Positions 3,406 to 62,837 of a stretch of DNA of 64,000 nt are shown piece by piece (position 1 is the stretch's first letter; every line of letters starts with the position of its first letter). This DNA is from Escherichia phage RB69. The stretch lies in sequence record NC_004928.1; one strand, 5' to 3'. The notes beneath the pieces were generated by a model, which was given only the letters and a program-made list of their open reading frames with translations, was not told the origin of the DNA and ran no database searches. The translations under genes and the position numbers were made by a program.

Positions 3406-4092
3406 TTAGAAGTCGTGGGTAGAATCGGCTTCCATCGCAATAACATAACTTACTTGAGAGCTTTCAAACTTAGCTGCAACTTTATCACCAGCTCCCCACA
3501 ACATTACTTTATAGTTACCTGGCTGAATTTTCATATTAGCCATATTGATTACGAAGTTAAAGTTGTTAGAACCATCATAATCGGTAAGAGTCAAAGAATA
3601 CTTAGGACGAGTTAGTCCGGAATCTTCAACTTTATTATAGCCATTGATAACAATTTTACCATCTTTATTTGTAATAGCAATTGTATCAATCTGAAGACCA
3701 CGTGAAACTCGAAGCAATTGTTGAAGGTCTTCGGCTTTAATTTCAGTAATCACAGAAGCCACTGGGAATTGAATTGGCTTATTAGGAAAAACAATGGTGC
3801 TCTTGTCAGCGGCAGGCCAATAAACTGTGGAACGTGTATCTGCAATTTTAATATTACCATCAGTGTGCATTGAAATTTCAGCATCGTCAGACACTAGACT
3901 CAAAATGCTTAAGAAGCTATTCAAATCATAAAGTGCTACGTCAAAATCAATTTCATCAGAGATATTTGCTTCCGCATAAGTGGTGCCATTAACTGCACGA
4001 GTCATAATAAATTTACCTTGACTCAGCAGAATGCCTGAGTTAATAGAGGCAAAGTTTTTCAGAATAGCGATAGTATCTTTAGACAGTTTCAT
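3406..4092 (-). CDS. 45: sliding clamp gp45
   Basis: MKLSKDTIAILKNFASINSG matches T4 gp45; start trimmed from track ORF 3406..4107. Confidence 0.9.
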   Translation of the reverse strand: MKLSKDTIAILKNFASINSGILLSQGKFIMTRAVNGTTYAEANISDEIDFDVALYDLNSFLSILSLVSDDAEISMHTDGNIKIADTRSTVYWPAADKSTIVFPNKPIQFPVASVITEIKAEDLQQLLRVSRGLQIDTIAITNKDGKIVINGYNKVEDSGLTRPKYSLTLTDYDGSNNFNFVINMANMKIQPGNYKVMLWGAGDKVAAKFESSQVSYVIAMEADSTHDF

Positions 4093-4134
4093 TTTATTTC
4101 CTTTCAAGACAATTCAAAGTTTATAACAAATTTA

Positions 4135-4551
4135 TTATGCAGCAACCATCTGCTTTTTAATAGCTTCAGGCAGTGATTCAATATATTCTGGAATTTTAGA
4201 AGCAACAATTTCGCCAGCTGCAATTAGTTGTTCGTCGGCATCAACACAATAGAAATCTTCTAGACGCTCAGAACCGTCTTTATCAAGAACGATTTTTCCG
4301 CCAGCTTCAATAGAATCTTTATAGTGCTTACGCATCAGATGAATCCACATATCAGATACATCGTTATCAATAAAACCATAAATCATAAAACGAGTTTCTT
4401 GTGGCAAAGATTGAAGTTTTTTAGCACTTGCGTCATCACAATGCAGGACCCATGCTTTACGAACACGATTATGGTTATGTGGGTTAGCGTCAGTACGGAT
4501 AGAAGTAACTTTCAGATCAGCAGCAGTGAAACCTTTAGCAGTAGTAAACAT
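4135..4551 (-). CDS. hypothetical protein at the rpbA position (possible RNA polymerase-binding protein)
   Basis: 138-aa ORF immediately upstream of gene 45 as rpbA is in T4; assignment by synteny only. Confidence 0.45.
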   Translation of the reverse strand: MFTTAKGFTAADLKVTSIRTDANPHNHNRVRKAWVLHCDDASAKKLQSLPQETRFMIYGFIDNDVSDMWIHLMRKHYKDSIEAGGKIVLDKDGSERLEDFYCVDADEQLIAAGEIVASKIPEYIESLPEAIKKQMVAA

Positions 4552-10740: not shown

Positions 10741-11018
10741 GATATTTTCCTCATTTTAAGACGATAGGAAGATAATAACATGTCTTCCCTATCGTTGTAC
10801 ATTATTAACCGAACTTTTTTGGCGCCTTTCCAGCCTTCGTACATAACTGCACAAGTCAGTAGTACAGCGTGCTGGCATTCTTTGTATTTGTAAATCCAGA
10901 ACCAGCGTAAGAAGTCTTCATCCTCAACGCCGGTGGATTTCATATTGGCAAAGAATTCGGCACGTTCTTCACGAAGCTTTTGCGATAACATAGATTCAGG
11001 ATTCATTTTGTGTTCCAC
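10725..11018 (-). CDS. hypothetical protein
   Basis: 97-aa ORF. Confidence 0.4.
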   Translation of the reverse strand: MEHKMNPESMLSQKLREERAEFFANMKSTGVEDEDFLRWFWIYKYKECQHAVLLTCAVMYEGWKGAKKVRLIMYNDREDMLLSSYRLKMRKISWPKN

Positions 11019-12976: not shown

Positions 12977-13447
12977 TTAATCATGTTTCCACACCCCATC
13001 GGTATTTGACCAAAGTCGCTGATTATCTGATCCTCGCCATAGCTTTTTGGTCGGAAGATTTTTCTCATACTTCCCATCAATAATAACATCAACATATTTA
13101 AGCATTTCTAGTTGTTTAATATCTTCAAACTTGTATCCTGTCCACAACCAAATGCTTTTATTGGGATAAAGATTTTTTACTGTTTGAGCAATGCAATGAA
13201 TAACATCTCGATTGTCAGGATAGAGAGGGTCACCTCCGGTTATAGTCAATCCTTCTATATAATCGTTATTCAAACATTCAATTAATTGTTCTAGTGTTTC
13301 ACCAGTGAATGGAACACCATTTCTAGCATTCCATGTTGATTTATTATAACACCCTTCACATTTATGCAAACAACCTGTAACGAAAAGAACGACCCTACAA
13401 CCAGGGCCATTCACAAAATCGCAAGGATAAAATCTATCATAATTCAT
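12977..13447 (-). CDS. nrdG: anaerobic ribonucleotide reductase activating protein NrdG (radical SAM)
   Basis: 156 aa; CLHKCEGCYN cysteine cluster; near-identical to T4 NrdG. Confidence 0.9.
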   Translation of the reverse strand: MNYDRFYPCDFVNGPGCRVVLFVTGCLHKCEGCYNKSTWNARNGVPFTGETLEQLIECLNNDYIEGLTITGGDPLYPDNRDVIHCIAQTVKNLYPNKSIWLWTGYKFEDIKQLEMLKYVDVIIDGKYEKNLPTKKLWRGSDNQRLWSNTDGVWKHD

Positions 13448-15261
13448 TGGTGTTTAACCCTATGCATGATTTCTTTATTTTTACCGAGATTAAATCCGCG
13501 TTCGTTCGGATTTCCCAAATAACCGCATGTTCTTCTTATGGTGTTCATCTTTTTAGGATCAGTTTCTCCACAAATAGAACAAACAAATCCGGTTTCAGTA
13601 GGAGTCATTTCATGGGTACTTCCGCATGTAAAACATTTATCTACTGGCATATTAACACCAAAATAATCTAAATGTTGTGCAGCATAATCCCACACGGCCT
13701 CAAGACCTTTTAAGTTATTTTTCATATCAGGAAGTTCAACATAAGAAATGTGACCACCTGTCGCAATGAAATGATATGGCGCTTCACGAGAAATCTTTTC
13801 AAACGGAGTAATATTTTCTTCTACTGAAACATGGAAACTATTAGTGTACCAGCCTTTATCAGTAACATCCTTTACACTTCCATATTTTTCTGTATCAAGT
13901 TTACAGAAGCGATAACAAAGGTTTTCAGCAGGTGTAGAATACAAGCTAAAAGCAAACCCAGTTCTTTCAGTCCATTGTTTAAGAAGAGCATTCATTTTAG
14001 TTAAAATTTCTTGTCCAATATCACGACCGACAAGAATATTCAATTCGTGAATACCAATGTATCCTAGGGACACTGAACTTCTACCATTTTTAAATAACTC
14101 AATTATGTCATCATCAGGTTTAAGACGAACCCCGAATGCACCTTCTTGGTAAAGAATAGGAGCAACAGTAGCTTTAACTCCTTTTAAGGAACTAATTCTA
14201 CACATCAAAGCTTCAAAACACAGGTCCATTCGCTCATCGAACAATTCAGTAAATTTCTGTTCATTGAACTGTGTTCCAATATAAGAATCTAACGCAATAC
14301 GAGGAAGATTCAGTGTTACAACGCCAAGATTATTGCGTCCATCAAGAATTTCATTGCCAGTTGAATCTTTCCATATGCTCAAGAAACTACGGCAACCCAT
14401 TGGAGAAACAGGAACTGAAGAACCGGTAATAGCTTTATTATTCTTAACCGAAATAATGTCAGGATACATTCTTTTGCTTGCGCACTCTAACGCAAGTTGT
14501 TTAATATCATAGTTCGGATCATCTTTATAAAGATTAACACCTTCTTCAACAAACATAACAAGTTTAGGAAAAATAGGAGTTATTCCATCACGACCAAGAC
14601 CTTTAATGCGGTTTTTAAGAATTGCTTTCTGAATCATTCGTTCAGTCCAGTCAGTTCCCGTACCAAATGTAATTGTTACAAAAGGCGTTTGTCCGTTTGA
14701 ACTAAAGAGAGTATTTACTTCATATTCATAAGCTTGGAATGCATCGTATACGTCTTTTTCTGTTTTAGACTGGGCATAATTCAACGCATCAGCGATTTGC
14801 CATTTTTCTGCATCCTCAATATGTTTTGCATAGGTGCGTTTAACATAAGGAGAAAGTACTTTATCTACATTAGCAAAAGTCGTTCCGCCGTATTGATGGG
14901 AAGCAACCTGTGCAGTAATTTGTGCCATAATTGCAGTAGCAACGCCAATAGATTTAGGCGTTTCAATTTGAGCATTGCCTAATTTAAATCCATTCTCAAG
15001 CATCCCCTTTAAATCGACTAAACAGCAATTGGTAAACGGAAGAGCAGGAGAATAATCAATATCATGCATGTGAATGATTCCGCTTTCATGCGCATGCATA
15101 ATAAAAGACGGGACCATATTTTTGGCAATGTGCTTAGACACAATACCAGCCATAAGGTCCCGTTGAGTTGGAAAAACACGAGAATCTTTATTAGCATTCT
15201 CGTTCAAAAGATCTTTATTAGTTTTATAAATTAATCCTTCAATTTCTTTTTCAATTTTCAT
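13444..15261 (-). CDS. nrdD: anaerobic ribonucleoside-triphosphate reductase NrdD (glycyl radical enzyme)
   Basis: 605 aa; C-terminal glycyl radical motif RTCGYLG; uninterrupted ORF. Confidence 0.9.
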   Translation of the reverse strand: MKIEKEIEGLIYKTNKDLLNENANKDSRVFPTQRDLMAGIVSKHIAKNMVPSFIMHAHESGIIHMHDIDYSPALPFTNCCLVDLKGMLENGFKLGNAQIETPKSIGVATAIMAQITAQVASHQYGGTTFANVDKVLSPYVKRTYAKHIEDAEKWQIADALNYAQSKTEKDVYDAFQAYEYEVNTLFSSNGQTPFVTITFGTGTDWTERMIQKAILKNRIKGLGRDGITPIFPKLVMFVEEGVNLYKDDPNYDIKQLALECASKRMYPDIISVKNNKAITGSSVPVSPMGCRSFLSIWKDSTGNEILDGRNNLGVVTLNLPRIALDSYIGTQFNEQKFTELFDERMDLCFEALMCRISSLKGVKATVAPILYQEGAFGVRLKPDDDIIELFKNGRSSVSLGYIGIHELNILVGRDIGQEILTKMNALLKQWTERTGFAFSLYSTPAENLCYRFCKLDTEKYGSVKDVTDKGWYTNSFHVSVEENITPFEKISREAPYHFIATGGHISYVELPDMKNNLKGLEAVWDYAAQHLDYFGVNMPVDKCFTCGSTHEMTPTETGFVCSICGETDPKKMNTIRRTCGYLGNPNERGFNLGKNKEIMHRVKHQ

Positions 15262-16546: not shown

Positions 16547-17028
16547 AATAATCTCTTCCCATTTCCATATCAATTAATTCATTTATTGAAGGTTCATCAT
16601 AACATGGTTCTTCGTCGTTGTAAACCGTTTCGACGTCTGGCTCGACAGTCTCCCATCGAGCAGAATACCACGGTTTAACCCCGGAGTTTATTGAGCTCTT
16701 CATAATCAATCCAGGATTCTAGCCCTGACGGCAGGTCACATTCAATGTTCCACAGAAGCTCTTCAATGGCTTGCAGGCGATTATATTCTTCAACGGTAAT
16801 GGTAACCATTGGTGCAACCGGTTCTGCCTTTTTAACCATCATATCGTTCATCAGGACGTAAAGGTCATCACGAACGACAGTGTCCGTTCCAACCCCATGA
16901 TTTGGCTTCGTAAGCTAATGATGAAGGGAGCACATTTAAAACTTCAAAAATAGTTGGAGCATCAGGACCAAGTTCATTGGCACAAACTTCGTATACATCT
17001 TGGAAATCTTTAAGATTTAATGAATATG

Positions 17029-29583: not shown

Positions 29584-29849
29584 TAGTATTTTTCCTCAGG
29601 TCGAAATACTGCACGACATGCCCACATGCTGGCTTCTTTTAGATGTTGCTTAGCATACTTAAGAGCCTGCACTGCATCCATATCTTCTTTGGTTTGTTGC
29701 TCTGTTTCATTTTCTTTCAAGATATATGCTTCTTCAATCAGAGCATCAAACATCAATCCAAGACGGACTTCTGCATCTTTAATAGCGTTCACTTTACCGA
29801 TTTTATCATCGGTATGCGGCTTGTAGCCTTTGATGTCTTCAATCGACAT
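29583..29849 (-). CDS. hypothetical protein
   Basis: Track ORF 29583..30017 trimmed to MSIEDIKGY. Confidence 0.4.
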   Translation of the reverse strand: MSIEDIKGYKPHTDDKIGKVNAIKDAEVRLGLMFDALIEEAYILKENETEQQTKEDMDAVQALKYAKQHLKEASMWACRAVFRPEEKY

Positions 29850-30063
29850 AAGGAATTTCCTCATCGGTGGCAAGGTCATATTCGACCAATTGGATAGGCT
29901 CGTTAATACCATATCCACGTACAGTGATATCGGTTGTCGGATATTTTCCAGTAATATCACCCATTCTAAATGCTTCAGTGAATGATTGCTCGCCTGAGCA
30001 ACTAAACCAGGCGGCAAAACATTTTAAAACATCTTCAGACCCTTCTATAATCAATTTAGCCAT
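29839..30063 (-). CDS. hypothetical protein
   Basis: 74-aa acidic ORF. Confidence 0.4.
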   Translation of the reverse strand: MAKLIIEGSEDVLKCFAAWFSCSGEQSFTEAFRMGDITGKYPTTDITVRGYGINEPIQLVEYDLATDEEIPYVD

Positions 30064-30425
30064 TATAGACTCTCAGTAAAGGTACGAGCGATAACGTCGC
30101 GCTGCTGTTCCGGAGTCAGAGAGTTAAAGCGAACTGCATAACCGGATACACGGATGGTCAGCTGCGGATATTTTTCCGGATGCTTAACTGCATCTTCCAG
30201 AGTTTCGCGACGCAGAATGTTAACGTTCAGGTGTTGACCACCTTCAATTTTAACTTTAGGTTGATGTTCAATTTCAATTTCACGGGCATTCAAACCGTAG
30301 AAAATTTCCGGGTCTACAATAGAGTCTTCTTTAAAAGTCTTAGAGACAATAATCCGGGCTTGAGTACCGTCTTCAAAATAAATAGTGCCTTTATGTGCAC
30401 CTTCAAGAATTTGATATGCTTTCAT
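30063..30425 (-). CDS. grcA: GrcA/YfiD-like autonomous glycyl radical cofactor
   Basis: C-terminal about 60 aa ([60 protein letters not shown]) match enterobacterial GrcA as recalled; glycyl radical motif RVSGY. Confidence 0.8.
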
Positions 30426-41990: not shown

Positions 41991-42080
41991 TTAAAATCCT
42001 TGAAATAATTTATCGGTTGGTTATTAATTATTTATTACTTTGTTATTATCAGTAACAGCATTCTCTGAGTGATTCAAACT

Positions 42081-42108
42081 AAAAAGCCCCAACCTTTCGG
42101 AAGGGGCT
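42081..42108 (-). terminator. rho-independent terminator, identical copy of 26135..26163
   Basis: GCCCCTTCCGAAAGGTTGGGGC then T5 on minus strand. Confidence 0.55.
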
Positions 42109-42159
42109 AAGCCTCGCGGCAACCTTGTCGGGGTTCCACCTGCTAAGGCAAGTGTTTGT

Positions 42160-42262
42160 ACGAAACGCCGGGATTCGAACCCGGTTATTAAGCAGTTGAC
42201 GCTACTCAATATTTTTAAAAGGCCATATCTCGACCATATCCGAACGTTCCGTCAAAAACGCT
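42160..42262 (-). ncRNA. tRNA-like structured RNA (canonical T-arm CCGGG-UUCGAAU-CCCGG with paired acceptor-like stem)
   Basis: GGTTCGAATCC T-arm motif on minus strand; about 90 nt between acceptor-like strands; does not fold into a standard cloverleaf by eye. Confidence 0.3.
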
Positions 42263-42419
42263 ACTCGACTTACGGCAAAGATATTTCCTCGAATCGATAA
42301 TTCGGTGCGCCGTTTCTGCTGTGATGTAAGGGGATATTAACGAATCATAAAGATTTATTAAGACCAGTCCTTACTCAGGGAACATCAGTCCGACGACTTA
42401 CCGGTAGCGACCCGGCTTC

Positions 42420-42782: not shown

Positions 42783-42861
42783 TGGTCGAGACAGAAGGAT
42801 TCTAACCTTCAACCTACGGATTAGAAGTCCCCGTTGCTCTATACAATTGAGCTATGCCTCG
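42783..42861 (-). tRNA. tRNA-like gene, Arg(UCU)-like anticodon context with non-canonical loop
   Basis: 7-bp acceptor stem, D-stem GCUC/GAGC, T-arm GAAGG-UUAGAAU-CCUUC, encoded CCA; anticodon arm only folds with a 9-nt loop. Confidence 0.4.
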
Positions 42862-42867
42862 AATATA

Positions 42868-42941
42868 TGACCCAGACCAGATTCGAACTGGTAACCTTTC
42901 CCTTATGAGGGGACTGCTGCTAACCGTTGAGCTACAGGGCC
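42868..42941 (-). tRNA. tRNA-like gene, CAU anticodon context (Met/Ile), imperfect D-arm
   Basis: T-arm ACCAG-UUCGAAU-CUGGU, acceptor stem with one U-U mismatch, loop CUCAUAA. Confidence 0.35.
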
Positions 42942-49263: not shown

Positions 49264-50996
49264 TGGAAATGATTAGTAGTAGCCTTAATTGGTTCGTTGG
49301 TGTTGTTGAAGACAGAATGGACCCATTGAAACAAGGGCGTGTTCGAGTACGAGTCGTAGGCCTGCATCCAGCACAGAGAGCACAAGGTGATGTACAAGGT
49401 ATTCCTACAGAAAAACTTCCATGGATGACTGTTATTCAACCTATTACATCTGCATCAATGTCGGGTATTGGTGGTTCTGTTACAGGCCCTGTTGAAGGAA
49501 CTCGAGTATATGGTCATTTCTTAGACAAATGGAAAACAAACGGTATTGTACTCGGTACATATGGTGGAATTGTACGCGAAAAGCCTAATAGACTCGAAGG
49601 TTTTTCCGACCCGACAGGTCAGTATCCGCGACGTTTAGGTAATGATACGAACGTATTAAACCAAGGTGGTGAAGCTGGCTATTATTCGAACTCTAACGTA
49701 ATTCAAGATAACAACTTAGATTATGGTATAAACCCAGATGATACAGATTTAGCAAATATTCCTGAAGATGATGACCCTAATTTTACAATAACAGAAATGT
49801 TACGTCGTGACGAAGGTCTTCGCGATAAAGTATATTGGGACCATCTAGGGTATCCTACAGTAGGTATTGGACACCTTATCGTAATGGAAAAGACCCGAGA
49901 CATGTCTCGAATTAATAAATTGTTATCCGATCAAGTAGGGCGTGAAGTAACAGGAAATCCCGGGACTATTACATTAGAAGAAGCAACAGCTCTATTTGAG
50001 AAGGACCTTGCTAAGATGCAGAAAGACATTCGTTCTAATTCTAAAGTAGGTCCTGTTTATGCTAAAATGAACAGGTCTCGCCAAATGGCATTAGAAAACA
50101 TGTGCTTCCAAATGGGCGTTGGCGGTGTAGCAAAATTCAATACTATGCTTAAAGCAATGGCCACAGGCGATTGGAAAACTGCATACAAATCTGGACGCGA
50201 TTCGTTATGGTTCCAACAGACTAAAGGGCGTGCTTCACGTGTAACAACAATTATTTTAACTGGTAACATGGAATCATATGGCGTTCCTGTTAAAACACCA
50301 CCTTCACCAGGAGTCGGTGCCGATTTAGTTACTAGAAATACCGATCCAGAAGACCCGGCTGGTCCTCCTGTTCCATTAGATTCACGTATCCTTTTTAAAG
50401 AACCGGAATCAAGTTATCGTGGTGAATACCCATATGTTCATGCTATGGAAACAGAAAGCGGTCATATCCAAGAGTTTGACGACACTCCAGGTAACGAACG
50501 TTATCGCTTAGTTCATCCAACAGGGTCATATGAGGAAGTTTCTCCGTCTGGTCGTCGCACTCGTAAAACTGTAGAAGACCTTTTTGACATCACTAATGGC
50601 GATGGGAATTTCCTGGTTTCTGGTGATAAACTTGTTAACGTTGGTGCTAACGAAATATATTATAACATGGCGGACCGCCTCCATCAAATAGATGGCAGCG
50701 ACACAATCTTTATTCGTGGCAACCAAGTTAAAACTGTTGAAGGTGATGGAACTCTTTACGTTAAGGGCAATATCAAAATAGTCGTTGACGGGAATGCAGA
50801 TATTCTTGTTAAAGGTGATGCTAAGTCTCAAGTTGAAGGGAATCATGACTATACTGTCAATGGTAATGTTAAATGGACTGTCAATGGTAATGTTGATATG
50901 ACTGTTGCTGGCAATTGGTCGGAGACAATGACTACAATGAGCTCAATAGCTTCAGGACAATATACTGTTGACGGATCTCGTATTGATATTGGGTAA
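49263..50996 (+). CDS. 5: baseplate hub and tail lysozyme gp5
   Basis: 577 aa; lysozyme domain (EGLRDKVYWDHLGYPTVGIGHL) and C-terminal VxGN beta-helix repeats. Confidence 0.9.
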   Translation: MEMISSSLNWFVGVVEDRMDPLKQGRVRVRVVGLHPAQRAQGDVQGIPTEKLPWMTVIQPITSASMSGIGGSVTGPVEGTRVYGHFLDKWKTNGIVLGTYGGIVREKPNRLEGFSDPTGQYPRRLGNDTNVLNQGGEAGYYSNSNVIQDNNLDYGINPDDTDLANIPEDDDPNFTITEMLRRDEGLRDKVYWDHLGYPTVGIGHLIVMEKTRDMSRINKLLSDQVGREVTGNPGTITLEEATALFEKDLAKMQKDIRSNSKVGPVYAKMNRSRQMALENMCFQMGVGGVAKFNTMLKAMATGDWKTAYKSGRDSLWFQQTKGRASRVTTIILTGNMESYGVPVKTPPSPGVGADLVTRNTDPEDPAGPPVPLDSRILFKEPESSYRGEYPYVHAMETESGHIQEFDDTPGNERYRLVHPTGSYEEVSPSGRRTRKTVEDLFDITNGDGNFLVSGDKLVNVGANEIYYNMADRLHQIDGSDTIFIRGNQVKTVEGDGTLYVKGNIKIVVDGNADILVKGDAKSQVEGNHDYTVNGNVKWTVNGNVDMTVAGNWSETMTTMSSIASGQYTVDGSRIDIG

Positions 50997-50999
50997 TAT

Positions 51000-51515
51000 A
51001 TGGCACAAATACTTCCTTTAAATACCGACTTAGGAGAAGACATGGAAGGGGCGTCTATTGACGTCCTTTTTACTCCACAGTTAGAAACTACCGAAACTTT
51101 GGTGTCAATAAATATAATAGATTATGAACCAACACAAGGCATTACAGTTGACGGTAATCACTTATATGGAACATATGAAAGCGTATTTAGCTTTTCTTCA
51201 GATGCATTGAAATATCGATTAAACGATGATTTTAAAACTGCATCTTCATGGGAAGATTTACCGCAAGACCAAAGCACTCAACTATATTTGTGGAGAGCTC
51301 CTCAGAACCTCCGTAAAGTATTTAGTTATACGGTTGAAATGATTTATAACTACCAAGAAGAAGGTTCATCAGGCGGCTCAAGAAGTGACTCTAGTACAGA
51401 ACCTCCGCCGGCTCCGGTACAAAAAACTCTTACTAAGGTTTATACAAAAACTATAGTAGGAAATTGGAGCAAATGGGCTCAACAATTACGAAACTATGTT
51501 TATGCGAGGCCATAA
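51000..51515 (+). CDS. hypothetical baseplate-region protein (5.1 position)
   Basis: 171-aa ORF between genes 5 and 5.4. Confidence 0.5.
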
Positions 51516-51517
51516 AA

Positions 51518-51811
51518 ATGTCTGGCTTAAGTTACGACCAGTGCGTTACAACAGGTCATGAAGCATGGCCTCCTACAATAATTAATGCTTCTCAATCTAA
51601 AGTATTCACCGGCGGTATTCCTGTTCTTGTAGCAGGAGACCAAATAACACCTCATACAGAAATTAAAAAACCGTACGAGACTCATGGAGGTGTTACTGAA
51701 CCTCGTACATCTAAAGTATATGTCACAGGTAAAAAGGCCGTTCAAATGGCTGACCCAATTTCATGCGGGGATACTGTTTCTCAGGCCTCGTCAAAAGTCT
51801 TTATAAAATAG
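51518..51811 (+). CDS. 5.4: PAAR-repeat spike tip protein gp5.4
   Basis: [41 protein letters not shown] matches T4 gp5.4; start trimmed. Confidence 0.75.
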
Positions 51812-51819
51812 GAATTAAA

Positions 51820-53790
51820 ATGGCAAACACTCCTGTAAATTATCAGTTAGTCAGAACGGCGAATGCTATTCCCGAAATTTTTATCGGGGGCACATTTGCC
51901 GAAATTAAAACAAATATAATAGAATGGCTCAATGGACAGAACGAATTTCTTGATTATGATTTTGAAGGTTCGCGTTTAAACGTATTGTGTGACCTTTTAG
52001 CATATAATACTCTTTATATCCAACAGTTCAGTAATAGTGCAGTGTATGAAAGCTTTATGCGTACTGCTAACTTGCGCAGTTCCGTTGTACAAGCGGCTCA
52101 GGATAATGGATATCTGCCTGCATCTAAATCAGCAGCACAAACAGAAATTATGCTCACATGTACGGATGCATTAAATAGAAACTATATCACTATTCCACGT
52201 GGTACTCGTTTCCTGGCGTATGCTAAAGGTACTTCTGTAAATCCATATAACTTTGTTTCCACCGAAGACGTCATTGTAGTTAAAGACAAAAATAATCAAT
52301 ATTTCCCACGTCTTAGGTTAGCTCAGGGACGTATTGTTCGTACTGAATTAACATTTGATAAATTAAAACCTATCATTATTCGTGATAAGAACATCGACCG
52401 TAATTTGGTTAAATTGTATGTTGACGGAGCAGAATGGATTAACTGGACTCGCAAATCGATGGTTCATGCTGGTTCTACTTCGACCATTTATTATATGCGA
52501 GAAACTGTTGACGGGAACACTGAATTTTATTTTGGTGAAGGTGAAATCTCTATTAGCACATCAGAAGGTGCTTTAACATCCAACTACATTGGTGGCCTTA
52601 AACCTGTCCAGGGTTCTAAAATCGTAATTGAATATATTTCTACTAATGGTGCTGAAGCAAATGGTGCAGTAGGATTCTCTTATGCTGATACATTAGCTAA
52701 TATCACAGTTATTGGAATTAATGAAAACCCAAGTAATAACCCTGACTTCGTTGGTGCGGATGGCGGTGGCGACCCTGAAGATATTGAACGTATCCGTGAA
52801 TTAGGTACAATTAAACGTGAAACTCAACAACGATGTGTGACTGCGACAGATTACGACACATTCGTCTCTGAACGATTTGGTTCTATTATTCAAGCGGTTC
52901 AGACATTTACGGATTCATCTAAGCCTGGGTACGCATTTATTGCTGCTAAACCTAAGTCTGGGTTATATTTGACTTCCGTCCAACGAGATGATATTAAAAA
53001 TTATCTTAATGAGTATAACTTAGGGACGATAACTCCTGTTGTTATTTCTCCTGATTATTTGTTTATTAAAATGAATATTCGCGTTACGTATGCATTGAAC
53101 AAATTACAAGAATCTGAACAATGGTTAGAAGGCCAAATTATTAATAAAATCGACCGGTATTATATTGAAGACGTGGAAATTTTTAACTCGTCATTCGCAA
53201 AATCTAAAATGCTAACGTATGTCGATGACGCAGATATTTCTATCATTGGTTCGTCTGCGACTATTCAAATGGTTCGCGAGGTACAGAACTTCTACAAAAC
53301 ACCTGAAACAGGTATTAAATACAATAACCAGATTAAAGATAGAACATTAGAATCTAACGTGTTTTCATTTGATAGTTTACGCGTTGACCCTGAAACGGAA
53401 GCTACTATTAAATATGACGTTCGCATTGTAGGTTCAGATAGAAATGACCGTGGCATTGGACAAGTTATCATTGGTCCGTTTGCAGATGGCGACGTTATAG
53501 AAAATGCTTATATTCAACCATATACTGGTGACGATTTTAATAAACTTCATGTTACGGACGGAAGAAACAAATATTACTCTATAGGTGAAGTAAATTATCC
53601 GGCTGATTCAATTTATTGGAATATAGCTAAAATTGATTTAACTTCTGATAGGTTTGAAGTTCAAACTATTGAACTCTATTCAGACCCAGCTGATGATGTT
53701 ATCTTTACTAAAGACGGGTCATTAATTGTATTTGAAAATGACTTACGTCCGCAATATTTAACCATAGATTTGGAGCCTATTTCACAATGA
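51820..53790 (+). CDS. 6: baseplate wedge protein gp6
   Basis: MANTPVNYQLVRTANAIPEIFIGGTFAEIK matches T4 gp6; track start is an upstream non-ATG extension. Confidence 0.9.
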   Translation: MANTPVNYQLVRTANAIPEIFIGGTFAEIKTNIIEWLNGQNEFLDYDFEGSRLNVLCDLLAYNTLYIQQFSNSAVYESFMRTANLRSSVVQAAQDNGYLPASKSAAQTEIMLTCTDALNRNYITIPRGTRFLAYAKGTSVNPYNFVSTEDVIVVKDKNNQYFPRLRLAQGRIVRTELTFDKLKPIIIRDKNIDRNLVKLYVDGAEWINWTRKSMVHAGSTSTIYYMRETVDGNTEFYFGEGEISISTSEGALTSNYIGGLKPVQGSKIVIEYISTNGAEANGAVGFSYADTLANITVIGINENPSNNPDFVGADGGGDPEDIERIRELGTIKRETQQRCVTATDYDTFVSERFGSIIQAVQTFTDSSKPGYAFIAAKPKSGLYLTSVQRDDIKNYLNEYNLGTITPVVISPDYLFIKMNIRVTYALNKLQESEQWLEGQIINKIDRYYIEDVEIFNSSFAKSKMLTYVDDADISIIGSSATIQMVREVQNFYKTPETGIKYNNQIKDRTLESNVFSFDSLRVDPETEATIKYDVRIVGSDRNDRGIGQVIIGPFADGDVIENAYIQPYTGDDFNKLHVTDGRNKYYSIGEVNYPADSIYWNIAKIDLTSDRFEVQTIELYSDPADDVIFTKDGSLIVFENDLRPQYLTIDLEPISQ

Positions 53791-56700
53791 CAGTAAAAGC
53801 GCCAGCAGTCACGAGTCTCAGATTATCTAAATTGTCCGCAAACCAAGTTCAAATTCGCTGGGATGAGGTTGGCGCTAATTTCTACTATTTTGTGGAAATA
53901 GCTGAGACCAAAACAGCTAATGGGGAAGCAATTCCCCGTAATAGCTATAGATGGACTAATTTAGGATATACCGCTGATAACAATTTCTTTGAGTCTGGTT
54001 TAAATTCATTAACAACATATATGATGCGTGTGGCTACAGCAGCGGAGGGATTTGAGCAGTCTGATTGGAGATACACCGAAGAGTTTGAAACATTTGAAAT
54101 AAACGCTTACACATTCCAACATATGATTGAAATGCAATTAGCTAACGAGTTTATTTCTGAAAAATTTACAAAAAATAATACAAACTACGTTGATTTTAAT
54201 AATGACACGATCATGGCAGCACTGATGAGCGAGTCGTTCCAATTTAGTCCTGCATACACCGATGTGTCATCGATTAGAAATTTTATAATTGGTGAAAATC
54301 AGTATCATGAAATCCAGGGGCATATCCAGGACGTATGTAAAGATATAAATCGAGTATATCTAATGGAATCTGAAGGAATTCTTTACCTTTTTGAAAGATT
54401 CCAACCTATTGTAAAAGTGTCTAATGATAAAGGCCAAACATGGAAAGCGGTTAAATTGCTTAATGACCGTGTAGGATATCCACTTTCACGAACTGTATAT
54501 TACCAATCAGAATATACGACGTATTTGCTCGGCTATGATAAGATTTTTTACGGGCGTAAATCATCCGATATTCGTTGGTCTGCTGATGATGTTCGTTTCA
54601 GTTCACAAGATGTAACATTTGCTAAAATCGGGGACCGATTAAATTTAGGTTTTGATGTAGAGATTTTCGGTACATACGCGTCATTACCAGGAAACGTATC
54701 ACGTATTGCAGAAGCTATTACTTGTAATGATGACTATGTTTATATTGCGGCCAGAGATAAAGTTCGCTTCGTTAAAACCAGTAACGCTCCTATTGATTCA
54801 GATCCATTATCTCCGACCTATTCCGAACGGTTGTTTGAACCTGAGACGTTTACAATAACAGGCAACCCTAAAGCAGTTTGTTATAAAATGGATTCTGTTG
54901 GTGGAAGAATATTCGCTCTTATTATTGGTGAAGTCGAAAACGTTAATGACGACCCAAGAACAAAGCCTATTTTAGATTCCGTTGATAAAGGTGTATACGT
55001 TTTAGACCATGACGCTGGAACATTTAAAAGGATATTTGGTAATACCGAAGAAGAACGCCGTCGTATAGAACCGGCTTTCACCAATATGTCTACTGATGGT
55101 GTTGAGCTTTATATCTCTTCTAGTAATTTTAAATTTTTAGAATCTGATATTGTTGACGACCCAGAAACGCAATCTAAGTATGGACTTTTAGGAGCAGTTA
55201 AGTATGAATATCCTAGAGAATGGCTCGCAGATAAACATTACCATATGATGATTTTCGCATCAAACGAAGAAAGTAATTGGGAAACTTTTTCACCAACTCC
55301 TATGCAGTATTATGCAGAACCTTTCTTTAGTTATTCTAGAAAATCAGGCACACGTTCTTGGATTAATAACTCTGATAGAGCGGTAGTGATTTATTCTGAT
55401 TTGCTTTACACAAAGGTAGTGGAAAGCCACCCTAGCACTTCACCTGATCGTAAAGTTCATGAATACTGGAATGATGGTGATTGTAAGATTGTTATGCCGA
55501 ATATAGAATTCACTGGATTTAAAAAATACGCATCTGGTATGTTGTTTTATAAATCATCAGGTGAAATAATTTCATATTACGATTTTAGTTATCGTGTTAG
55601 AGATAACGTTTCTATAATTTGGAAGCCCACTAACGTATTTTTGACCTCCTCATTACAAAACCAAGAAAAAGAAACTTCTTGGGTTCCTGTTGAAGAGACA
55701 GGTCTAGCTGACCCGGATTTACGCCCATTACTCACTACAATGATGCCAGAGTCTTATCTGTTGGATAATACAAACTTTGAAGCATTTTGTGAAGCGTACA
55801 TTCAATATCTTTCTGATGGATACGGGACTCATTATAATAACTTATTGAATTTGATTAAAAATAAATACCCACGAGAAGAACACGCATGGGAATATCTTTG
55901 GTCTGAAATTTATAAACGGAACATTTATTTGAATGCTGAGAAACGTGATTTAGTTTCTAGGTTCTTTGAGTCCAGAAGTTACGATTTTTATTCTACTAAA
56001 GGAACTGAAGCGTCGTATAAGTTTTTGTTTAAAGTTCTTTATAACGAAGACGTTGAAGTGGAAATTGAGTCATCTGCTGGAACAGAGTACGATATCATAA
56101 TTCAATCCGATTCTATAAGTGAAGATTTGGTTGGACAAACTATATACACTGCTACAGGTAGATGTAATGTTACATATTTAGAAAGAAGCTATTCTAAAGG
56201 TAAATTACAATGGACTGTGACTATTCATAACCTTTTAGGTAGGCTTTTAGTCGGTCAAGAAGTAAAAGCCGAAAGACTAGCAGATTTTGAAGGTGAAATA
56301 GTTCGCGGTATTAAAGGTAAAGAACTTGCCCAAAACACTATCGATTATTTTAATCGTGGTAGAGCTTATTACGTCATGAAAATAAAGTCAAATCTTCCGT
56401 CCTCTCGTTGGAAATCTGACGTACTACGTTTTGTACATCCGGTAGGATTTGGATTTATTGCAATAACCTTATTAACAATGTTTATTAATACAGGATTAAC
56501 GCTTAAACATGTTGAAACTATTATTAATAAATATAAAAATTATAAGTGGGATTCCGGACTGCCTACGGAATATGCAGACCGCGTCGCTCGTTTAGACCCT
56601 CAAGGTAATGTAGAATTCAATCCTGCTACAGGTGAAGTAATTTATGATGCCGGTCCTTATGCTGGTATCGAATACCCTTTACCTGCAAATTATAACGAAG

Positions 56701-56885
56701 AAAATGATAACTCTATTTTCCAAGGACAATTACCGTCCGAACGACGCAAGCCAATGAGCCCATTATTTGATGCATCAGGTACAACGTTCTCTAGATTTAG
56801 AGAGCTTGTTAATGAAAGATTGTTAGATAACGTGGGAAATCCTAGAGACCCGATTAATCCACCACAGGTTAAATTAGATGAATGA
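53787..56885 (+). CDS. 7: baseplate wedge protein gp7
   Basis: 1032 aa, same length as T4 gp7; synteny. Confidence 0.9.
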   Translation: MTVKAPAVTSLRLSKLSANQVQIRWDEVGANFYYFVEIAETKTANGEAIPRNSYRWTNLGYTADNNFFESGLNSLTTYMMRVATAAEGFEQSDWRYTEEFETFEINAYTFQHMIEMQLANEFISEKFTKNNTNYVDFNNDTIMAALMSESFQFSPAYTDVSSIRNFIIGENQYHEIQGHIQDVCKDINRVYLMESEGILYLFERFQPIVKVSNDKGQTWKAVKLLNDRVGYPLSRTVYYQSEYTTYLLGYDKIFYGRKSSDIRWSADDVRFSSQDVTFAKIGDRLNLGFDVEIFGTYASLPGNVSRIAEAITCNDDYVYIAARDKVRFVKTSNAPIDSDPLSPTYSERLFEPETFTITGNPKAVCYKMDSVGGRIFALIIGEVENVNDDPRTKPILDSVDKGVYVLDHDAGTFKRIFGNTEEERRRIEPAFTNMSTDGVELYISSSNFKFLESDIVDDPETQSKYGLLGAVKYEYPREWLADKHYHMMIFASNEESNWETFSPTPMQYYAEPFFSYSRKSGTRSWINNSDRAVVIYSDLLYTKVVESHPSTSPDRKVHEYWNDGDCKIVMPNIEFTGFKKYASGMLFYKSSGEIISYYDFSYRVRDNVSIIWKPTNVFLTSSLQNQEKETSWVPVEETGLADPDLRPLLTTMMPESYLLDNTNFEAFCEAYIQYLSDGYGTHYNNLLNLIKNKYPREEHAWEYLWSEIYKRNIYLNAEKRDLVSRFFESRSYDFYSTKGTEASYKFLFKVLYNEDVEVEIESSAGTEYDIIIQSDSISEDLVGQTIYTATGRCNVTYLERSYSKGKLQWTVTIHNLLGRLLVGQEVKAERLADFEGEIVRGIKGKELAQNTIDYFNRGRAYYVMKIKSNLPSSRWKSDVLRFVHPVGFGFIAITLLTMFINTGLTLKHVETIINKYKNYKWDSGLPTEYADRVARLDPQGNVEFNPATGEVIYDAGPYAGIEYPLPANYNEENDNSIFQGQLPSERRKPMSPLFDASGTTFSRFRELVNERLLDNVGNPRDPINPPQVKLDE

Positions 56886-57882
56886 TTCAAGTGTTGTCTA
56901 TCGTTCGATAGTTACTTCAAAATTTAGAACTGAAAAAATGTTGAATTTCTACAATTCAATAGGTGATGGTGATAATAAAAACACCATCTTTATAACGTTT
57001 GGTCGGTCTGAACCATGGGCTGCTAATGAAAATGAGGTGGGCTTCGCCCCACCGTATCCAACAGACTCGGTTTTAGGTGTAACAGATATGTGGACTAACA
57101 TGATGGGTTTAGTTAAAGTTATCCCATCTATGTTAGACTCGGTTATTCCTAGACGTGACTGGGGAGATATTCGTTATCCGGACCCTTATACATTCAAAAT
57201 AAATGATATAGTCGTATGTAATACAGCCCCATATAATGCCACTGAAGTCGGAGCTGGATGGTTAGTATACCGTTGCGTAGATGTTCCTGATGTTGGGATG
57301 TGTTCTATTGAGTCTCTCGACAACAAAGAAGAATGTCTTAAATTAGGCGGTAAATGGACTCCATCTGTTAGGTCTTTAACCCCTCCTGAAGGCCGTGGAG
57401 ATGCTGAAGGGATTATCGAAGTTGGTGATGGATATATATGGGAGTATCTTTATGAGATTCCACCTGATGTGTCTATAAACCGATGTACTAATGAATATAT
57501 AGTCGTTCCATGGCCGGAAGAAGTTAAAGAAGACCCTGCTCGTTGGGGATATGAAAACAATCTAACCTGGCAACAAGATGATTTTGGCCTTGTGTATAGA
57601 GTTAAAGCAAACATAATTCGTTTTAAAGCCTATTTAGACTCAGTTTATTTCCCTAATGCAGCACTGCCTGGTAATAAAGGATTTAGACAAATTTCTATTA
57701 TCACAAACCCCTTGGAAGCTAAACTCCGTCCTAATGACCCTAATATAAAGGCTGAAAAGGATTATTATGACCCCAGAGATTTACAGCGTCATTCTGGTGA
57801 AATGATTTATATGGAAAACCGTCCACCTATTATTATGGCAATGGACCAAACCGAAGAGATCAATATTTTGTTTATGTTCTAA
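56878..57882 (+). CDS. 8: baseplate wedge protein gp8
   Basis: 334 aa; MNDSSVVYRSIVTSKFRTEKMLNFYNSIG near-identical to T4 gp8. Confidence 0.9.
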   Translation: MNDSSVVYRSIVTSKFRTEKMLNFYNSIGDGDNKNTIFITFGRSEPWAANENEVGFAPPYPTDSVLGVTDMWTNMMGLVKVIPSMLDSVIPRRDWGDIRYPDPYTFKINDIVVCNTAPYNATEVGAGWLVYRCVDVPDVGMCSIESLDNKEECLKLGGKWTPSVRSLTPPEGRGDAEGIIEVGDGYIWEYLYEIPPDVSINRCTNEYIVVPWPEEVKEDPARWGYENNLTWQQDDFGLVYRVKANIIRFKAYLDSVYFPNAALPGNKGFRQISIITNPLEAKLRPNDPNIKAEKDYYDPRDLQRHSGEMIYMENRPPIIMAMDQTEEINILFMF

Positions 57883-57911
57883 TTTAGGGAGACTTCGGTC
57901 TCCCTTTCGTG

Positions 57912-57919
57912 TATAAATA
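57912..57919 (+). promoter_or_regulatory. late promoter TATAAATA upstream of gene 9
   Basis: exact octamer 26 nt upstream of ATG. Confidence 0.5.
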
Positions 57920-57944
57920 GTATAAACTATTAAGGATTAGCCAC

Positions 57945-58808
57945 ATGTATATTCAAACTCCAAAACAATTGATTGACGTTGGCGAAATTGGTAACGCTTC
58001 TACAGGCGATATCCTTTTTGACGGCGGTGTTAAAATAAACAATGATATAAATGCTATTTACAATGCGTTTGGTGACCAACGAAAAATGGCAACTGCTAAT
58101 GGGACAGGACCAAATGGACAAATAATCCATGCCACTGGATACTACCAAAAAGGAGGCCCTACTGATTATTTCACCCCTGTTCCAGTAGGAAGTAGACACG
58201 ACATAGATGCTTCTACCGGTGGTGTTATTGTTACTGTTGCTAGAGGTGAACTCGGCGATTCCGTGGAATTTATAAATTCAAACGGGTCAATTTCGGTAAA
58301 CAACCCATTAAGTATCCAAGCATTAGATTCTATTAAAGGTGTTGCAGGTAATTTAGTTATAACCACACCTTATACTAAAGTTACTCTTCGTTGTATTTCT
58401 TCTGGTGCAGGTGGTTCAATATGGGATTATTCTACAGAAAGTATGTTTAGTCATACCGAAATTCCTGTAGACGGGACATGGAATATTATTTCAGACTATG
58501 TCAATATTCCTCTATTTTATAAAACTGAATATAATGCTGCTAAACTTTTGGTTACATGCCAATCTGCCAACGGCAGAAAAATTAAATCATGCGAAATAAA
58601 TATTCTAATAGATACAATTAATTCAAGAGTTATTTCAACCGAATACGCAGTGATGCGCGTTGGTAATGATAACGAAGAAGATGAAATTGCGAATATTAGT
58701 TTTTCGATAATTAACAATTTTGCCACTATGACAGTTTCTTCACATATAAATGGTCTTCGAGTGGCAGCTAAAGTTATTTCAACTCAGAAAATTAGGGTCG
58801 CTCAATAA
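57945..58808 (+). CDS. 9: baseplate wedge / long tail fiber socket protein gp9
   Basis: 287 aa; synteny and similarity to T4 gp9. Confidence 0.9.
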   Translation: MYIQTPKQLIDVGEIGNASTGDILFDGGVKINNDINAIYNAFGDQRKMATANGTGPNGQIIHATGYYQKGGPTDYFTPVPVGSRHDIDASTGGVIVTVARGELGDSVEFINSNGSISVNNPLSIQALDSIKGVAGNLVITTPYTKVTLRCISSGAGGSIWDYSTESMFSHTEIPVDGTWNIISDYVNIPLFYKTEYNAAKLLVTCQSANGRKIKSCEINILIDTINSRVISTEYAVMRVGNDNEEDEIANISFSIINNFATMTVSSHINGLRVAAKVISTQKIRVAQ

Positions 58809-60622
58809 TGAAACAAAATATTAAAATTGGGAACGTCGTTGATGACGGACAAGGCGATTACCTTCGTCGTGGTGGTGCAAAAATTAATGAAAACTTTGAT
58901 GAGTTGTATTATGAATTAGGCGATGGCGAAGTTCCATATTCCGCTGGTGCCTGGAAAACATACCATTCTTCAGATGGACTTAATTTAGCTGCTGAATGGG
59001 GTAAATCATACGCAATTGATACTTCAACAGGGCGTGTTTCTATAAATTTACCTAAAGGAACAGTGGAAGATTATAATAAAGTAATTAGAGCCCGTGATGT
59101 ATTCGCCACATGGAATATTAACCCTGTAACATTAATTGCTGCCAGTGGTGATACTATTAAAGGTTCTTCTAGCCCAGTAGAAATCAATGTGCAGTTTTCA
59201 GACTTAGAATTAGTTTACTGTTCTCCTGGGCGCTGGGAATACGTTAAAAATAAACAAATAGACAAAATTACTAGTTCTGATATTAGTAGTGTAGCTCGTA
59301 AAGAATTTTTAGTCGAAGTTCAAGGTCAAACTGATTTTCTTGATGTATTTGGGTCTGTTTCTTATAATGTGAATAATATCCGTGTAAAACATCGTGGTAA
59401 CGAATTATACTACGGTGATGCGTTCAGTGACAATAGTGACTTTGGTTCTCCAGGAGCTAATCCTGGAGAAATCGTTGCATTAGATGGTAAAAACATCCGT
59501 TTAAGACAACCATGTAATATTGGCGACACCGTACAAATTGAAACCTTTTTGGATGGGATTACACAATTACGCAGTTCTTATTCTCGCCGCCAAATACGTA
59601 TTTTAGATTCGAAATTAACAACCCGTCCTTCCTTAGAAGGAAGTGTATATGTCGCTGATTTGTCAACTTTGAAATCTATTCCTTTTTCGGCATTTGGAGT
59701 TAATCCTTCAGAACCGGTCAATACTAATTCTTTAGAAGTTCGTTTTAATGGTATTCTTCAAGAATTAGCCGGTACTGTTGGTTTACCTATGTTCAGATGT
59801 GAAGGTGCTGATGCAGAAACTTCTACCGAGTGTTCAGCTTTAGGTGGGACTTGGGTTACATCTAACACCGATTATTCTATTGAATATGATGATAACGATG
59901 CAACTATTGCACGTGCTTTAGTCTTTGACCGTAAGTTTGAAGACCAAGACATTATTGATATTACATGGTTTAATAACGATTTAGGCGCTTTATTAAGTAT
60001 CGATGACATTTTAGATACAACTGATGAAAGGTATGTCGCACAAGGTGCAACCGTAAATGTGACCGGCGATGTGGCTTTGACCGATTTCAATAATATCGGA
60101 TGGCCTAATGTAGAATCTGTTCCGGCATATAGCAGGGAATTCTCATCTATTGCAAATATTTTTAACACTATTTACCCTGTCGGTACTATTTACGAAAATG
60201 CAGTGAACCCTAATAACCCAGCCACGTATTTAGGATTTGGTTCTTGGAAATTATGGGGACAAGGAAAAGTATTAGTTGGATGGAACGACGATATTAGCGA
60301 TCCTAATTTTGCATTAAATAATAACGACCTTGATTCTAGCGGGAATCCTACACATACCGCCGGTGGAACAGTCGGAACAACGTCTAACACACTAACTAAT
60401 TCTGATTTACCTCCTACTCAAACTGACGAGAAAGTTCTTATTTCCGATGAGAACGGTACAATTATTATTGGTGGTTGTCAATACGACCCTGATGCAGAAG
60501 GTCCTATATACACCAAATACCGTGAAGGCCACGCCACAACGAATAGTACACACGTACCGCCTCAAGCCGTAAATAATATTCAACCGTCAATTACCGTATA
60601 CCGTTGGGTAAGGATTGCATAA
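58808..60622 (+). CDS. 10: baseplate wedge protein gp10
   Basis: 604 aa; synteny. Confidence 0.9.
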
Positions 60623-61281
60623 TGACCATACTTAATACTAAAGCGGGAGTAATATCCCGCGAAGCAGATTTTTTAGGATTTAGAAAAAATCCTACTCAAA
60701 TTGATATTTTAAACAACCAAGGCGTAGGTTCTGTAACCATTTCTCAATTGGCAAAAGGATTCTACGATGATAACGTAGAATCTGCAATAAACGATGTTCA
60801 TAATATTGCTAGAGCAGATGTAGGAACAGTTACAATTAACACCTCAGGTGTATCTCCTGAAGGAACTTCACAGGTAGATTATTGGTCCTTTAGTGGAAGT
60901 GTAACTGACCCTAGTTTGCCCGATGGAAGCCCTGTTATTGTAAAAGTTTACGGGCTTCCTGTTAATGCTACTGTAGGTATGACAGCCGACGAATTTGTTG
61001 TACAATTACGTACTACTCTCCGGAATGCGATTTCCGACCAATTGGCTATTGCAGAGTATAAAGATGACCCTACTGTTGGGACTAAATTACAAATAACATA
61101 TTTAGATAACCAAAGACACGTACTCCCAACGTATTCCTCTTATGGTATCACGGTTTCTCAAGAAATAGTGTCTCAGGCTAAGTCCGGGTACGGCACTTGG
61201 AATTTACTAGGTGCGCAAACCATTACTCTTGACAGCCATACTTCACCTACAACCTTTTATTATTTTGTGAGAACCGCATGA
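60622..61281 (+). CDS. 11: baseplate wedge protein gp11 (short tail fiber attachment)
   Basis: [21 protein letters not shown] matches T4 gp11; ATG overlaps gene 10 stop. Confidence 0.9.
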
Positions 61282-62828: not shown

Positions 62829-62837
62829 GGGTAAAAA

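Follow-up and report, generated by a model that had tools for sequence, protein, structure and literature searches.

A tract in the vs.6 gene of Escherichia phage RB69 is nearly identical to Escherichia coli grcA and probably results from patch gene conversion

Two spare part proteins have been validated biochemically, namely YfiD/GrcA of Escherichia coli and Y06I, the vs.6 product of bacteriophage T4 (Wagner et al. 2001, cited in PMC8683613). As that work is cited there, the activating enzyme of pyruvate formate-lyase (PFL) installs a glycyl radical on these proteins, which form a complex with oxygen-cleaved PFL and restore its activity. Nolan et al. 2006 described vs.6 as a Gly_radical open reading frame (ORF) conserved in 6 of 6 T4-like genomes and speculated that it acts in nucleotide metabolism (PMC1524935). 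For the cyanophage genes psbA and psbD, intragenic recombination between host and phage, and also within the phage pool, has been reported (Sullivan et al. 2006, PMC1484495). The present analysis concerns the vs.6 gene of Escherichia phage RB69 in a stretch of 64,000 nucleotides from sequence record NC_004928.1, which is referred to as the window. Most of the 3' half of this gene is nearly identical to E. coli grcA. This tract very likely originated when an old phage homolog was patched by gene conversion with host grcA, an exchange that was probably recurrent.

The codons of the window gene were aligned to E. coli grcA without gaps and anchored at the stop codon. Codons 61 to 117 were identical to the K-12-type E. 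coli allele at 170 of 171 nucleotides. Every synonymous site in this tract matches E. coli grcA (0/43 changed), which corresponds to a synonymous divergence (dS) of 0. The 5' 180 nucleotides of the gene showed about 13 to 57% identity to E. coli grcA in sliding 30-nucleotide windows of the same alignment, and the dS of codons 1 to 60 was saturated (2.9). The tract has a GC content of 49.7% and a GC content at third codon positions (GC3) of 43.9%, compared to 34.4% and 23.3% in codons 1 to 60 and to a GC content of 37.3% for the window. Only 0.06% of the 171-nucleotide windows in the 64 kb match the GC content of the tract. The original prediction, made from the sequence alone, had described a GC-richer 3' part with host-like codons and an AT-rich, divergent N-terminal half. 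Both descriptions hold, as GC content is clearly non-uniform across the ORF and identity to grcA is far higher in the tract than in the 5' 180 nucleotides. The string quoted in that prediction, CGCGACGTTATCGCTCGTACC, corresponds to codons 109 to 115.

Both edges of the tract are sharp. Informative sites were classed three ways by comparing the window, E. coli, and each of six other copies from T4-like phages. This revealed a phage-like 5' part, followed by 28 to 40 consecutive E. coli-type sites and then by 3 phage-like sites. A run of 28 to 40 sites was reached in 0 of 200,000 permutations, the maximum being 18 to 24. The breakpoints are bracketed by positions 30237 to 30247 on the 5' side of the gene and 30073 to 30075 on the 3' side. 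On the 5' side, the tract begins where the highly conserved domain starts and DNA homology between phage and host sets in. Beyond the 3' edge, the last three sense codons, GAG AGT CTA, differ from the E. coli codons GAA AGC CTG at 3/3 third positions, and these synonymous variants, which represent the ancestral phage version, are common to distant T4-like phages (L013, L015, and L018). They hold a Shine-Dalgarno-like GAGAG run, which lies 6 nucleotides before the ATG with which the next gene overlaps vs.6; both the run and this start codon are contained in the sequence ACTGAGAGTCTATAATG at this edge. The overlap with the ATG of the next gene (TAATG) probably fixes the 3' limit of the tract, and selection on it may hold the edge there. 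Within the tract, codon 70 (ATT, Ile) is the only difference from E. coli grcA (GTT, Val). V70I probably arose by mutation after the conversion because ATT is absent at this codon from 12 of 12 other phage copies aligned.

On these sequence comparisons, the donor of the tract is specifically Escherichia grcA. The dS to E. coli grcA in the tract region was 0.073 for a cryptic Escherichia species, 0.42 for Citrobacter, 1.07 for Klebsiella, and 1.24 for Salmonella. The cryptic Escherichia species is identical to E. coli at 168/171 nucleotides and Citrobacter at 157/171, and among 80 bacterial species compared, only Escherichia exceeds 157/171. The original prediction of recent capture or gene conversion, with the host as the source of the 3' part, is strongly supported by the dS of 0 for the tract compared to the values for Citrobacter and Salmonella. 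The pflB gene was considered as a donor and ruled out; it is a paralog, and E. coli pflB DNA is 78.7% identical to the tract.

The whole 64 kb was also searched by megablast against 5,426 complete E. coli genomes. No match was obtained for positions 1 to 25000 or 50001 to 64000. The middle 25-kb segment matched at 10,838 places, which equals the count for the 188-nucleotide tract alone (grcA plus its pflB paralog), so the tract is the only E. coli DNA detectable by megablast in the 64 kb. Other host-derived patches were sought by megablast and at the high-GC spots at positions 16609 to 16780, 42079 to 42276, and 62303 to 62473, and none was found. The first and the last of these spots are local peaks of GC content (49.7% or more over 171 nucleotides) and are not host patches of the kind represented by the tract because they have no megablast similarity to E. 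coli. The spot at 42079 to 42276 is among the only four stretches of the window whose GC content is as high as that of the tract, and it gave no E. coli megablast match. It holds a strong element resembling a hairpin plus T run (AAAAAGCCCCAACCTTTCGGAAGGGGCT) and a sequence resembling the T arm of a transfer RNA (tRNA) (CGCCGGGATTCGAACCCGG). It lies about 500 nucleotides from the genes for tRNA-Arg and tRNA-Met (42783 to 42941) and was not called by ARAGORN or Rfam. It may represent a degenerate tRNA or a small stable RNA.

The distribution of the tract was analyzed in other phages. A tract that is at least 95% E. coli-like is present in about 640 phage records of the genera Tequatrovirus and Mosigvirus, and roughly 200 records equal one of three E. 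coli grcA alleles over the aligned 170 to 171 nucleotides. An assembly artefact was considered and is implausible, given the presence of the tract in about 640 independent genomes, including T4. Comparison of the window phage with T4 revealed 76 to 81% identity in the flanking 6 kb and 98 to 99% in the tract. Between Mosigvirus and Tequatrovirus, the dS was 0.42 in the N-terminal half (12/37 synonymous sites) and 0.048 in the tract (2/43).

Among the sampled E. coli alleles, those of K-12-type strains have C at position 39 of the tract, and most others have T. At position 102, either C or A is found, and A occurs together with T39. The haplotypes at these two positions recur in phages as the same three haplotypes. 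Allele A (C39/C102) was found in 30 phage records, e.g., AR1 and Kha5h (18 at 171/171 and 12 at 170/170), and allele C (T39/A102) was found in 7, e.g., sb2, BECP11, and LNA2 (5 at 171/171 and 2 at 170/170). Allele B (T39/C102), which includes a T4 isolate, accounts for about 160 records, a number scaled up from a sample of 60 rows taken at even intervals among 750 records, of which 13 carried the allele. Each of the three alleles is present in both genera. The Mosigvirus phage LNA2 differs from the window at 2/180 nucleotides of the N-terminal half, yet it carries allele C, and the window carries allele A plus V70I. The sharing of three haplotypes appears as predicted by repeated copying from different hosts, although it is not proof of it. 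A separate observation concerns the T4 record NC_000866 (L151; positions 4058 to 4420), which has CAT (His73) at a codon that is CGT or CGC (Arg) in 12 of 12 other aligned phage copies and in every E. coli allele sampled. His73 is either a mutation of the laboratory stock or a mistake in early sequencing; a second T4 record, MT984581, matches E. coli allele B at 171/171 nucleotides.

The exchange seems to be recurrent and to follow the host species. The T-even phages of Klebsiella (Jiaodavirus KP1079 and RCIP0102) carry the same gene, in which the N-terminal half and the 3' end are of the phage type. The tract in these phages encodes ETLLDAVEH, residues of the Klebsiella/Salmonella type, and the host-specific residues LEDAVK versus LLDAVE follow the host. 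The first 160 nucleotides of the RCIP0102 tract were compared with Klebsiella grcA from two representatives (P0001 and P0002). Identity was highest to Klebsiella grcA (contigs encoding P0001; 156/160), followed by K. variicola grcA (154/160), E. coli grcA (142/160), the tract of the window (141/160), and other T4-like phages (L013 and L018; 128 to 130/160). Further host-like tracts are possible in viral contigs. The tract of a 19-kb viral contig (L027) is nearest to Yersinia artesiana grcA (156/171, compared to 139 to E. coli). Among metagenome viral contigs of 33 to 154 kb, the tracts of L020 to L023 are nearest to Haemophilus parainfluenzae grcA (140 to 147/171), and L024, L025, and L028 have no clear nearest host. 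The hosts of L020 to L023 and L027 are too sparsely sampled for these tracts to be more than weaker hints.

Several related records were observed in the course of this comparison. T5-like phages of E. coli and Salmonella (L030 to L063, about 104 to 122 kb) encode a full-length Vs.6/GrcA homolog with about 52% amino acid identity. Their DNA is about 74% identical to E. coli grcA and has no host-identical tract despite the same hosts. The tracts of Tequatroviruses named after Yersinia pseudotuberculosis, Salmonella, and Citrobacter rodentium (H190, H191, H314, and H328) are E. coli alleles over 170 to 171 nucleotides, which suggests that their recent natural host was E. coli. In the 167-kb contig IMGVR_UViG_2974754850_000001 (L026), the vs.6 homolog at positions 601 to 959 is frameshifted and its ORF ends after 49 codons. 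The tblastn match spans 359 nucleotides and represents a pseudogene or a sequencing error; its tract is Klebsiella/Enterobacter-like. Two observations were made on bacterial records (L087/L095). A grcA copy is located on a record labelled as a 276-kb plasmid of Klebsiella sp. WOUb02, and an enterobacterial-type grcA (91% amino acid identity to E. coli) is located on a contig labelled as the Firmicute Vagococcus sp. WN89Y. The latter is probably due to contamination or mislabelling.

The window gene is preceded by a GAGG ribosome-binding site. Its product has the same length as T4 Vs.6 and is identical to it at 112/120 amino acids (93%). Seven of the 8 differences are located in or beside the N-terminal half. 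The two genes have the same locus position and the same mosaic nucleotide structure; they differ in that RB69 has the K-12-type grcA allele (C39) and the private V70I, which is absent from T4, while T4 has the T39 allele. Over the 2.5 kb around the gene, identity to Mosigvirus phages, e.g., APCEc01 and pEB20, is 98%, and the gene order regB - vs.3/4/5 - vs.6 - vs.7 - vs.8 - denV is found in APCEc01, related Mosigvirus phages, and T4. Judged by identity and gene order, the window gene is the Mosigvirus member of the T4 vs.6 orthologous group. The coordinates of the gene, its parts, and its relevant neighbors are given in Table 1. No Pfam match was obtained for the 74-amino-acid product of the downstream gene, and Rfam and ARAGORN revealed only two tRNAs in the window and nothing at the vs.6 locus.

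Table 1. Coordinates of vs.6, its segments, and other genes in the window
Feature	Position	Strand	Description
vs.6/GrcA-like coding sequence	30063..30425	minus	ATG-to-TAA ORF, 120 codons plus TAA; ortholog of T4 vs.6 (Y06I)
Phage-type AT-rich segment, codons 1-60	30246..30425	minus	diverged homolog of the GrcA N-terminal region
Putative grcA-derived conversion tract, codons 61-117	30075..30245	minus	K-12-type E. coli allele with one difference
Codon 70	30216..30218	minus	ATT
RVSGY glycyl-radical motif	30138..30152	minus	amino acids 92-96
Gly95 codon	30141..30143	minus	GGT; counterpart of E. coli GrcA Gly102
Last three sense codons	30066..30074	minus	phage-type synonymous variants
Downstream gene, vs.5 position	29839..30063	minus	74 amino acids; ATG overlaps the TAA of vs.6 as TAATG
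nrdD	13444..15261	minus	anaerobic ribonucleotide reductase, 605 amino acids; PF13597, E 9.5e-171
nrdG	12977..13447	minus	radical-SAM activase of NrdD, 156 amino acids; PF13353 and PF04055

The deduced protein contains PF01228 (Gly_radical) as its sole Pfam domain (residues 59 to 101, 66 bits, cut-off 22.2). Residues 21 to 120 align to residues 27 to 127 of the nuclear magnetic resonance structure of E. coli GrcA (Protein Data Bank [PDB] entry 6OWR_A; E 2e-42). Residues 61 to 120 are identical to E. coli GrcA at 59/60 positions, including the same RVSGY radical site, in agreement with the C-terminal glycyl radical domain of the GrcA/YfiD type that was recognized in the original prediction. The two proteins are alignable from about residue 20 onward; the phage protein differs in that it is 7 residues shorter and its N-terminal 60 residues are highly diverged (nonsynonymous divergence [dN], 0.78). 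Vs.6 residues 57 to 120 also align to the C terminus of PFL (residues 696 to 759; PDB entry 1H16; E 4e-26), the glycyl radical domain of PflB, which is the structural element that Vs.6 mimics and replaces. By homology to the T4 and E. coli proteins, RB69 Vs.6 would be activated by the host PFL-activating enzyme. It would then dock on oxygen-cleaved host PFL, substitute for the lost C-terminal piece, and sustain fermentative acetyl coenzyme A and ATP production during infection under microaerobic conditions. Radical installation and rescue of O2-cleaved PFL are attributed to the RB69 protein from its 93% identity to Y06I and the 59/60 identity of the domain. The predicted rescue of host PFL is thus backed by the biochemistry of the T4 ortholog Y06I (Wagner et al. 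2001, cited in PMC8683613), but it is not novel; the gene and this role are already known for the ortholog, and the function itself is nothing new.

The predicted alternative target was the anaerobic ribonucleotide reductase NrdD. NrdD and its activase NrdG are indeed encoded by the phage, as was predicted and as Pfam confirmed, about 15 kb from vs.6. NrdD likewise carries a glycyl radical and is subject to cleavage by oxygen. Vs.6 might therefore serve as a spare part for the phage's own NrdD, instead of or besides host PFL, and the role in nucleotide metabolism speculated by Nolan et al. 2006 (PMC1524935) would fit such a function. The evidence from the domain points the other way. Its matches are to PFL 696 to 759 and to GrcA, no NrdD structure is among the PDB matches at E values of 0.001 or lower, and BLASTP of the domain against the window NrdD gave E = 16. 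The domain stays identical to the PFL-specific GrcA of the host, and PFL rescue is the sole rescue demonstrated (PMC8683613). Because the domain is of the PFL type and has no detectable similarity to phage NrdD, rescue of NrdD is unsupported and very doubtful. Two explanations of the tract itself that do without conversion of an old gene fare no better. In one of them there is no transfer, and purifying selection on the protein together with selection on codons or messenger RNA yields the identity. The 60-amino-acid domain is in fact extremely conserved, and grcA is highly expressed with biased codons. However, phages L013 to L015 encode the identical 60-amino-acid peptide with 144/171 nucleotides and a dS of 1.41 to E. 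coli, so protein constraint alone gives about 84% identity and not 99%. Salmonella and Klebsiella grcA likewise have dS values of 1.1 to 1.2 to E. coli in the tract, the remainder of the phage gene uses AT-rich codons, and the E. coli identity ends abruptly at both edges. These synonymous-site comparisons already refute the explanation, which has practically no chance of being correct. The other explanation is a true chimera, in which a 3' fragment of host grcA was fused by illegitimate recombination to an unrelated phage ORF. The absence of nucleotide similarity to grcA in the 5' half and its phage-like composition would be expected from such a fusion. The 5' half, however, is weakly but alignably homologous to the N-terminal region of GrcA (ARIIVSK/ARCIVAK; residues 18 to 120 align to TIGR04365 and residues 21 to 120 to 6OWR). 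Full-length homologs are present in 1,587 phage records, among which are T4-like phages of other genera as well as T5-like phages, and their diverged, non-host-like C-terminal domains are 70 to 85% identical to E. coli grcA. In addition, the last three codons keep the synonymous variants of distant phages, so that phage-gene sequence borders the host sequence at either end. Since the 5' half corresponds to the GrcA N terminus and the last codons are of the phage type, these results indicate a patch conversion inside a pre-existing homolog and not a fresh capture, and a true chimera is highly improbable. The chimeric gene of the original prediction stands as a mosaic with sharp edges and a host-derived 3' tract, but not as a fusion of unrelated parts.

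The number of conversion events is less clear-cut. A single conversion or capture might have preceded the split of Tequatrovirus and Mosigvirus, or might have occurred in one lineage and then spread from phage to phage, with no continuing flow from the host. The near-identity would then reflect a young event or slow evolution of the tract, and the shared polymorphisms would be homoplasies. The private variants that phages carry at positions 12, 15, 28, 38, 57, and 165, unseen in E. coli, fit this explanation, as does the free recombination of T-even phages with one another. Three results argue for patch conversion that was repeated. The synonymous divergence of the tract between the genera is about 9-fold below that of the adjoining 180 nucleotides of the same gene. 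The three E. coli haplotypes, including T39 plus A102 with its transversion, are perfectly matched in phages of both genera. Finally, the Klebsiella-type tract is located in a separate phage lineage, so at least two independent host-specific events are required. A single event is therefore considered rather unlikely. Several observations nevertheless weigh against recurrent conversion from the host and against the assignments on which it builds. Both breakpoints are common to Tequatrovirus and Mosigvirus, as a single ancestral event followed by phage-phage spread would also produce, and alleles could be redistributed by recombination between phages. The shared polymorphisms that support recurrence are limited to two sites, one of which, the C/T difference at position 39, is a synonymous transition that is possibly homoplasic. 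By a rough estimate, two coincidences would occur by chance with a probability of about 0.003 when all changes are counted, or about 0.06 when the count is restricted to synonymous changes at third positions. The phages RB16, JEP8, and Phi1 of other E. coli-infecting T4-like genera (83%, 75%, and 57% amino acid identity to the window protein) carry the gene without an E. coli-type tract, so conversion is not automatic. The recombination mechanism is itself inferred, and the function of RB69 Vs.6 is deduced from homology to the T4 and E. coli proteins. The NCBIfam model TIGR04365 (spare_glycyl) scores 157.1 bits, which is under its curated equivalog cut-off of 170 bits because the N-terminal half is diverged; this cut-off is an annotation threshold and no biological property, and RefSeq labels the T4 and APCEc01 orthologs GrcA notwithstanding the shortfall.

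T-even phages break host DNA into fragments, and their own replication is primed by recombination. Copying of such fragments during replication of this T4 type would provide a route for patch conversion, in which homologous recombination overwrote codons 61 to 117 of an old AT-rich phage homolog with E. coli grcA DNA. The 3' end of a phage strand would invade grcA on a host fragment, inside the conserved domain, be extended along it, and then switch back to phage DNA as template. Such synthesis-dependent strand annealing would give a patch composed of phage-type modified nucleotides. A host-identical tract would in turn be an excellent substrate for more conversion, which would result in concerted evolution with fixed edges. 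Selection for a match to the host is plausible because the domain must suit host PflA, by which it needs to be recognized, and host PflB, to which it has to fit; host-matching residues would thus be favoured.

The cyanophage psbA and psbD genes resemble vs.6 in that a host-derived metabolic gene of a T4-like lytic phage carries signatures of intragenic recombination. The vs.6 gene differs from them by a single short domain patch of about 170 nucleotides with fixed edges that is 99 to 100% identical to extant host alleles. It also differs by its occurrence in a phage group with hydroxymethylcytosine and host DNA degradation. The literature found on vs.6 comprises functional work and the Pfam assignment only. 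No description of nucleotide identity between vs.6 and grcA, of allele sharing, or of host-tracking was found in the literature covered, which did not include the T4 genome review (PMC150520), so an earlier mention is possible. The nucleotide anatomy, with one short domain in T4 and its relatives consisting of literal host DNA, may therefore be new.

T-even phages replace cytosine with hydroxymethylcytosine and degrade host DNA. Whether vs.6 of these strictly lytic phages is in continuing concerted evolution with host grcA, with host alleles being repeatedly copied into the phage, is evenly balanced on the present evidence. Feedback from perfect homology plus selection for a fit to PflB and PflA would maintain such a process. 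The locus represents a clean and experimentally tractable case of gene conversion from a host to a lytic phage, in which the edges are defined, the donor is known, and synonymous markers are available. The frequency with which the T-even recombination machinery copies host DNA could be measured at this locus, which would also allow a test of whether a phage-borne metabolic gene must match the partner proteins of its host. The locus also calls for caution with host-prediction and contamination filters that rely on exact matches between phage and host. If concerted evolution is confirmed, the 171-nucleotide tract would record the recent natural host of the phage and could serve as a marker of that host in phage genomes.

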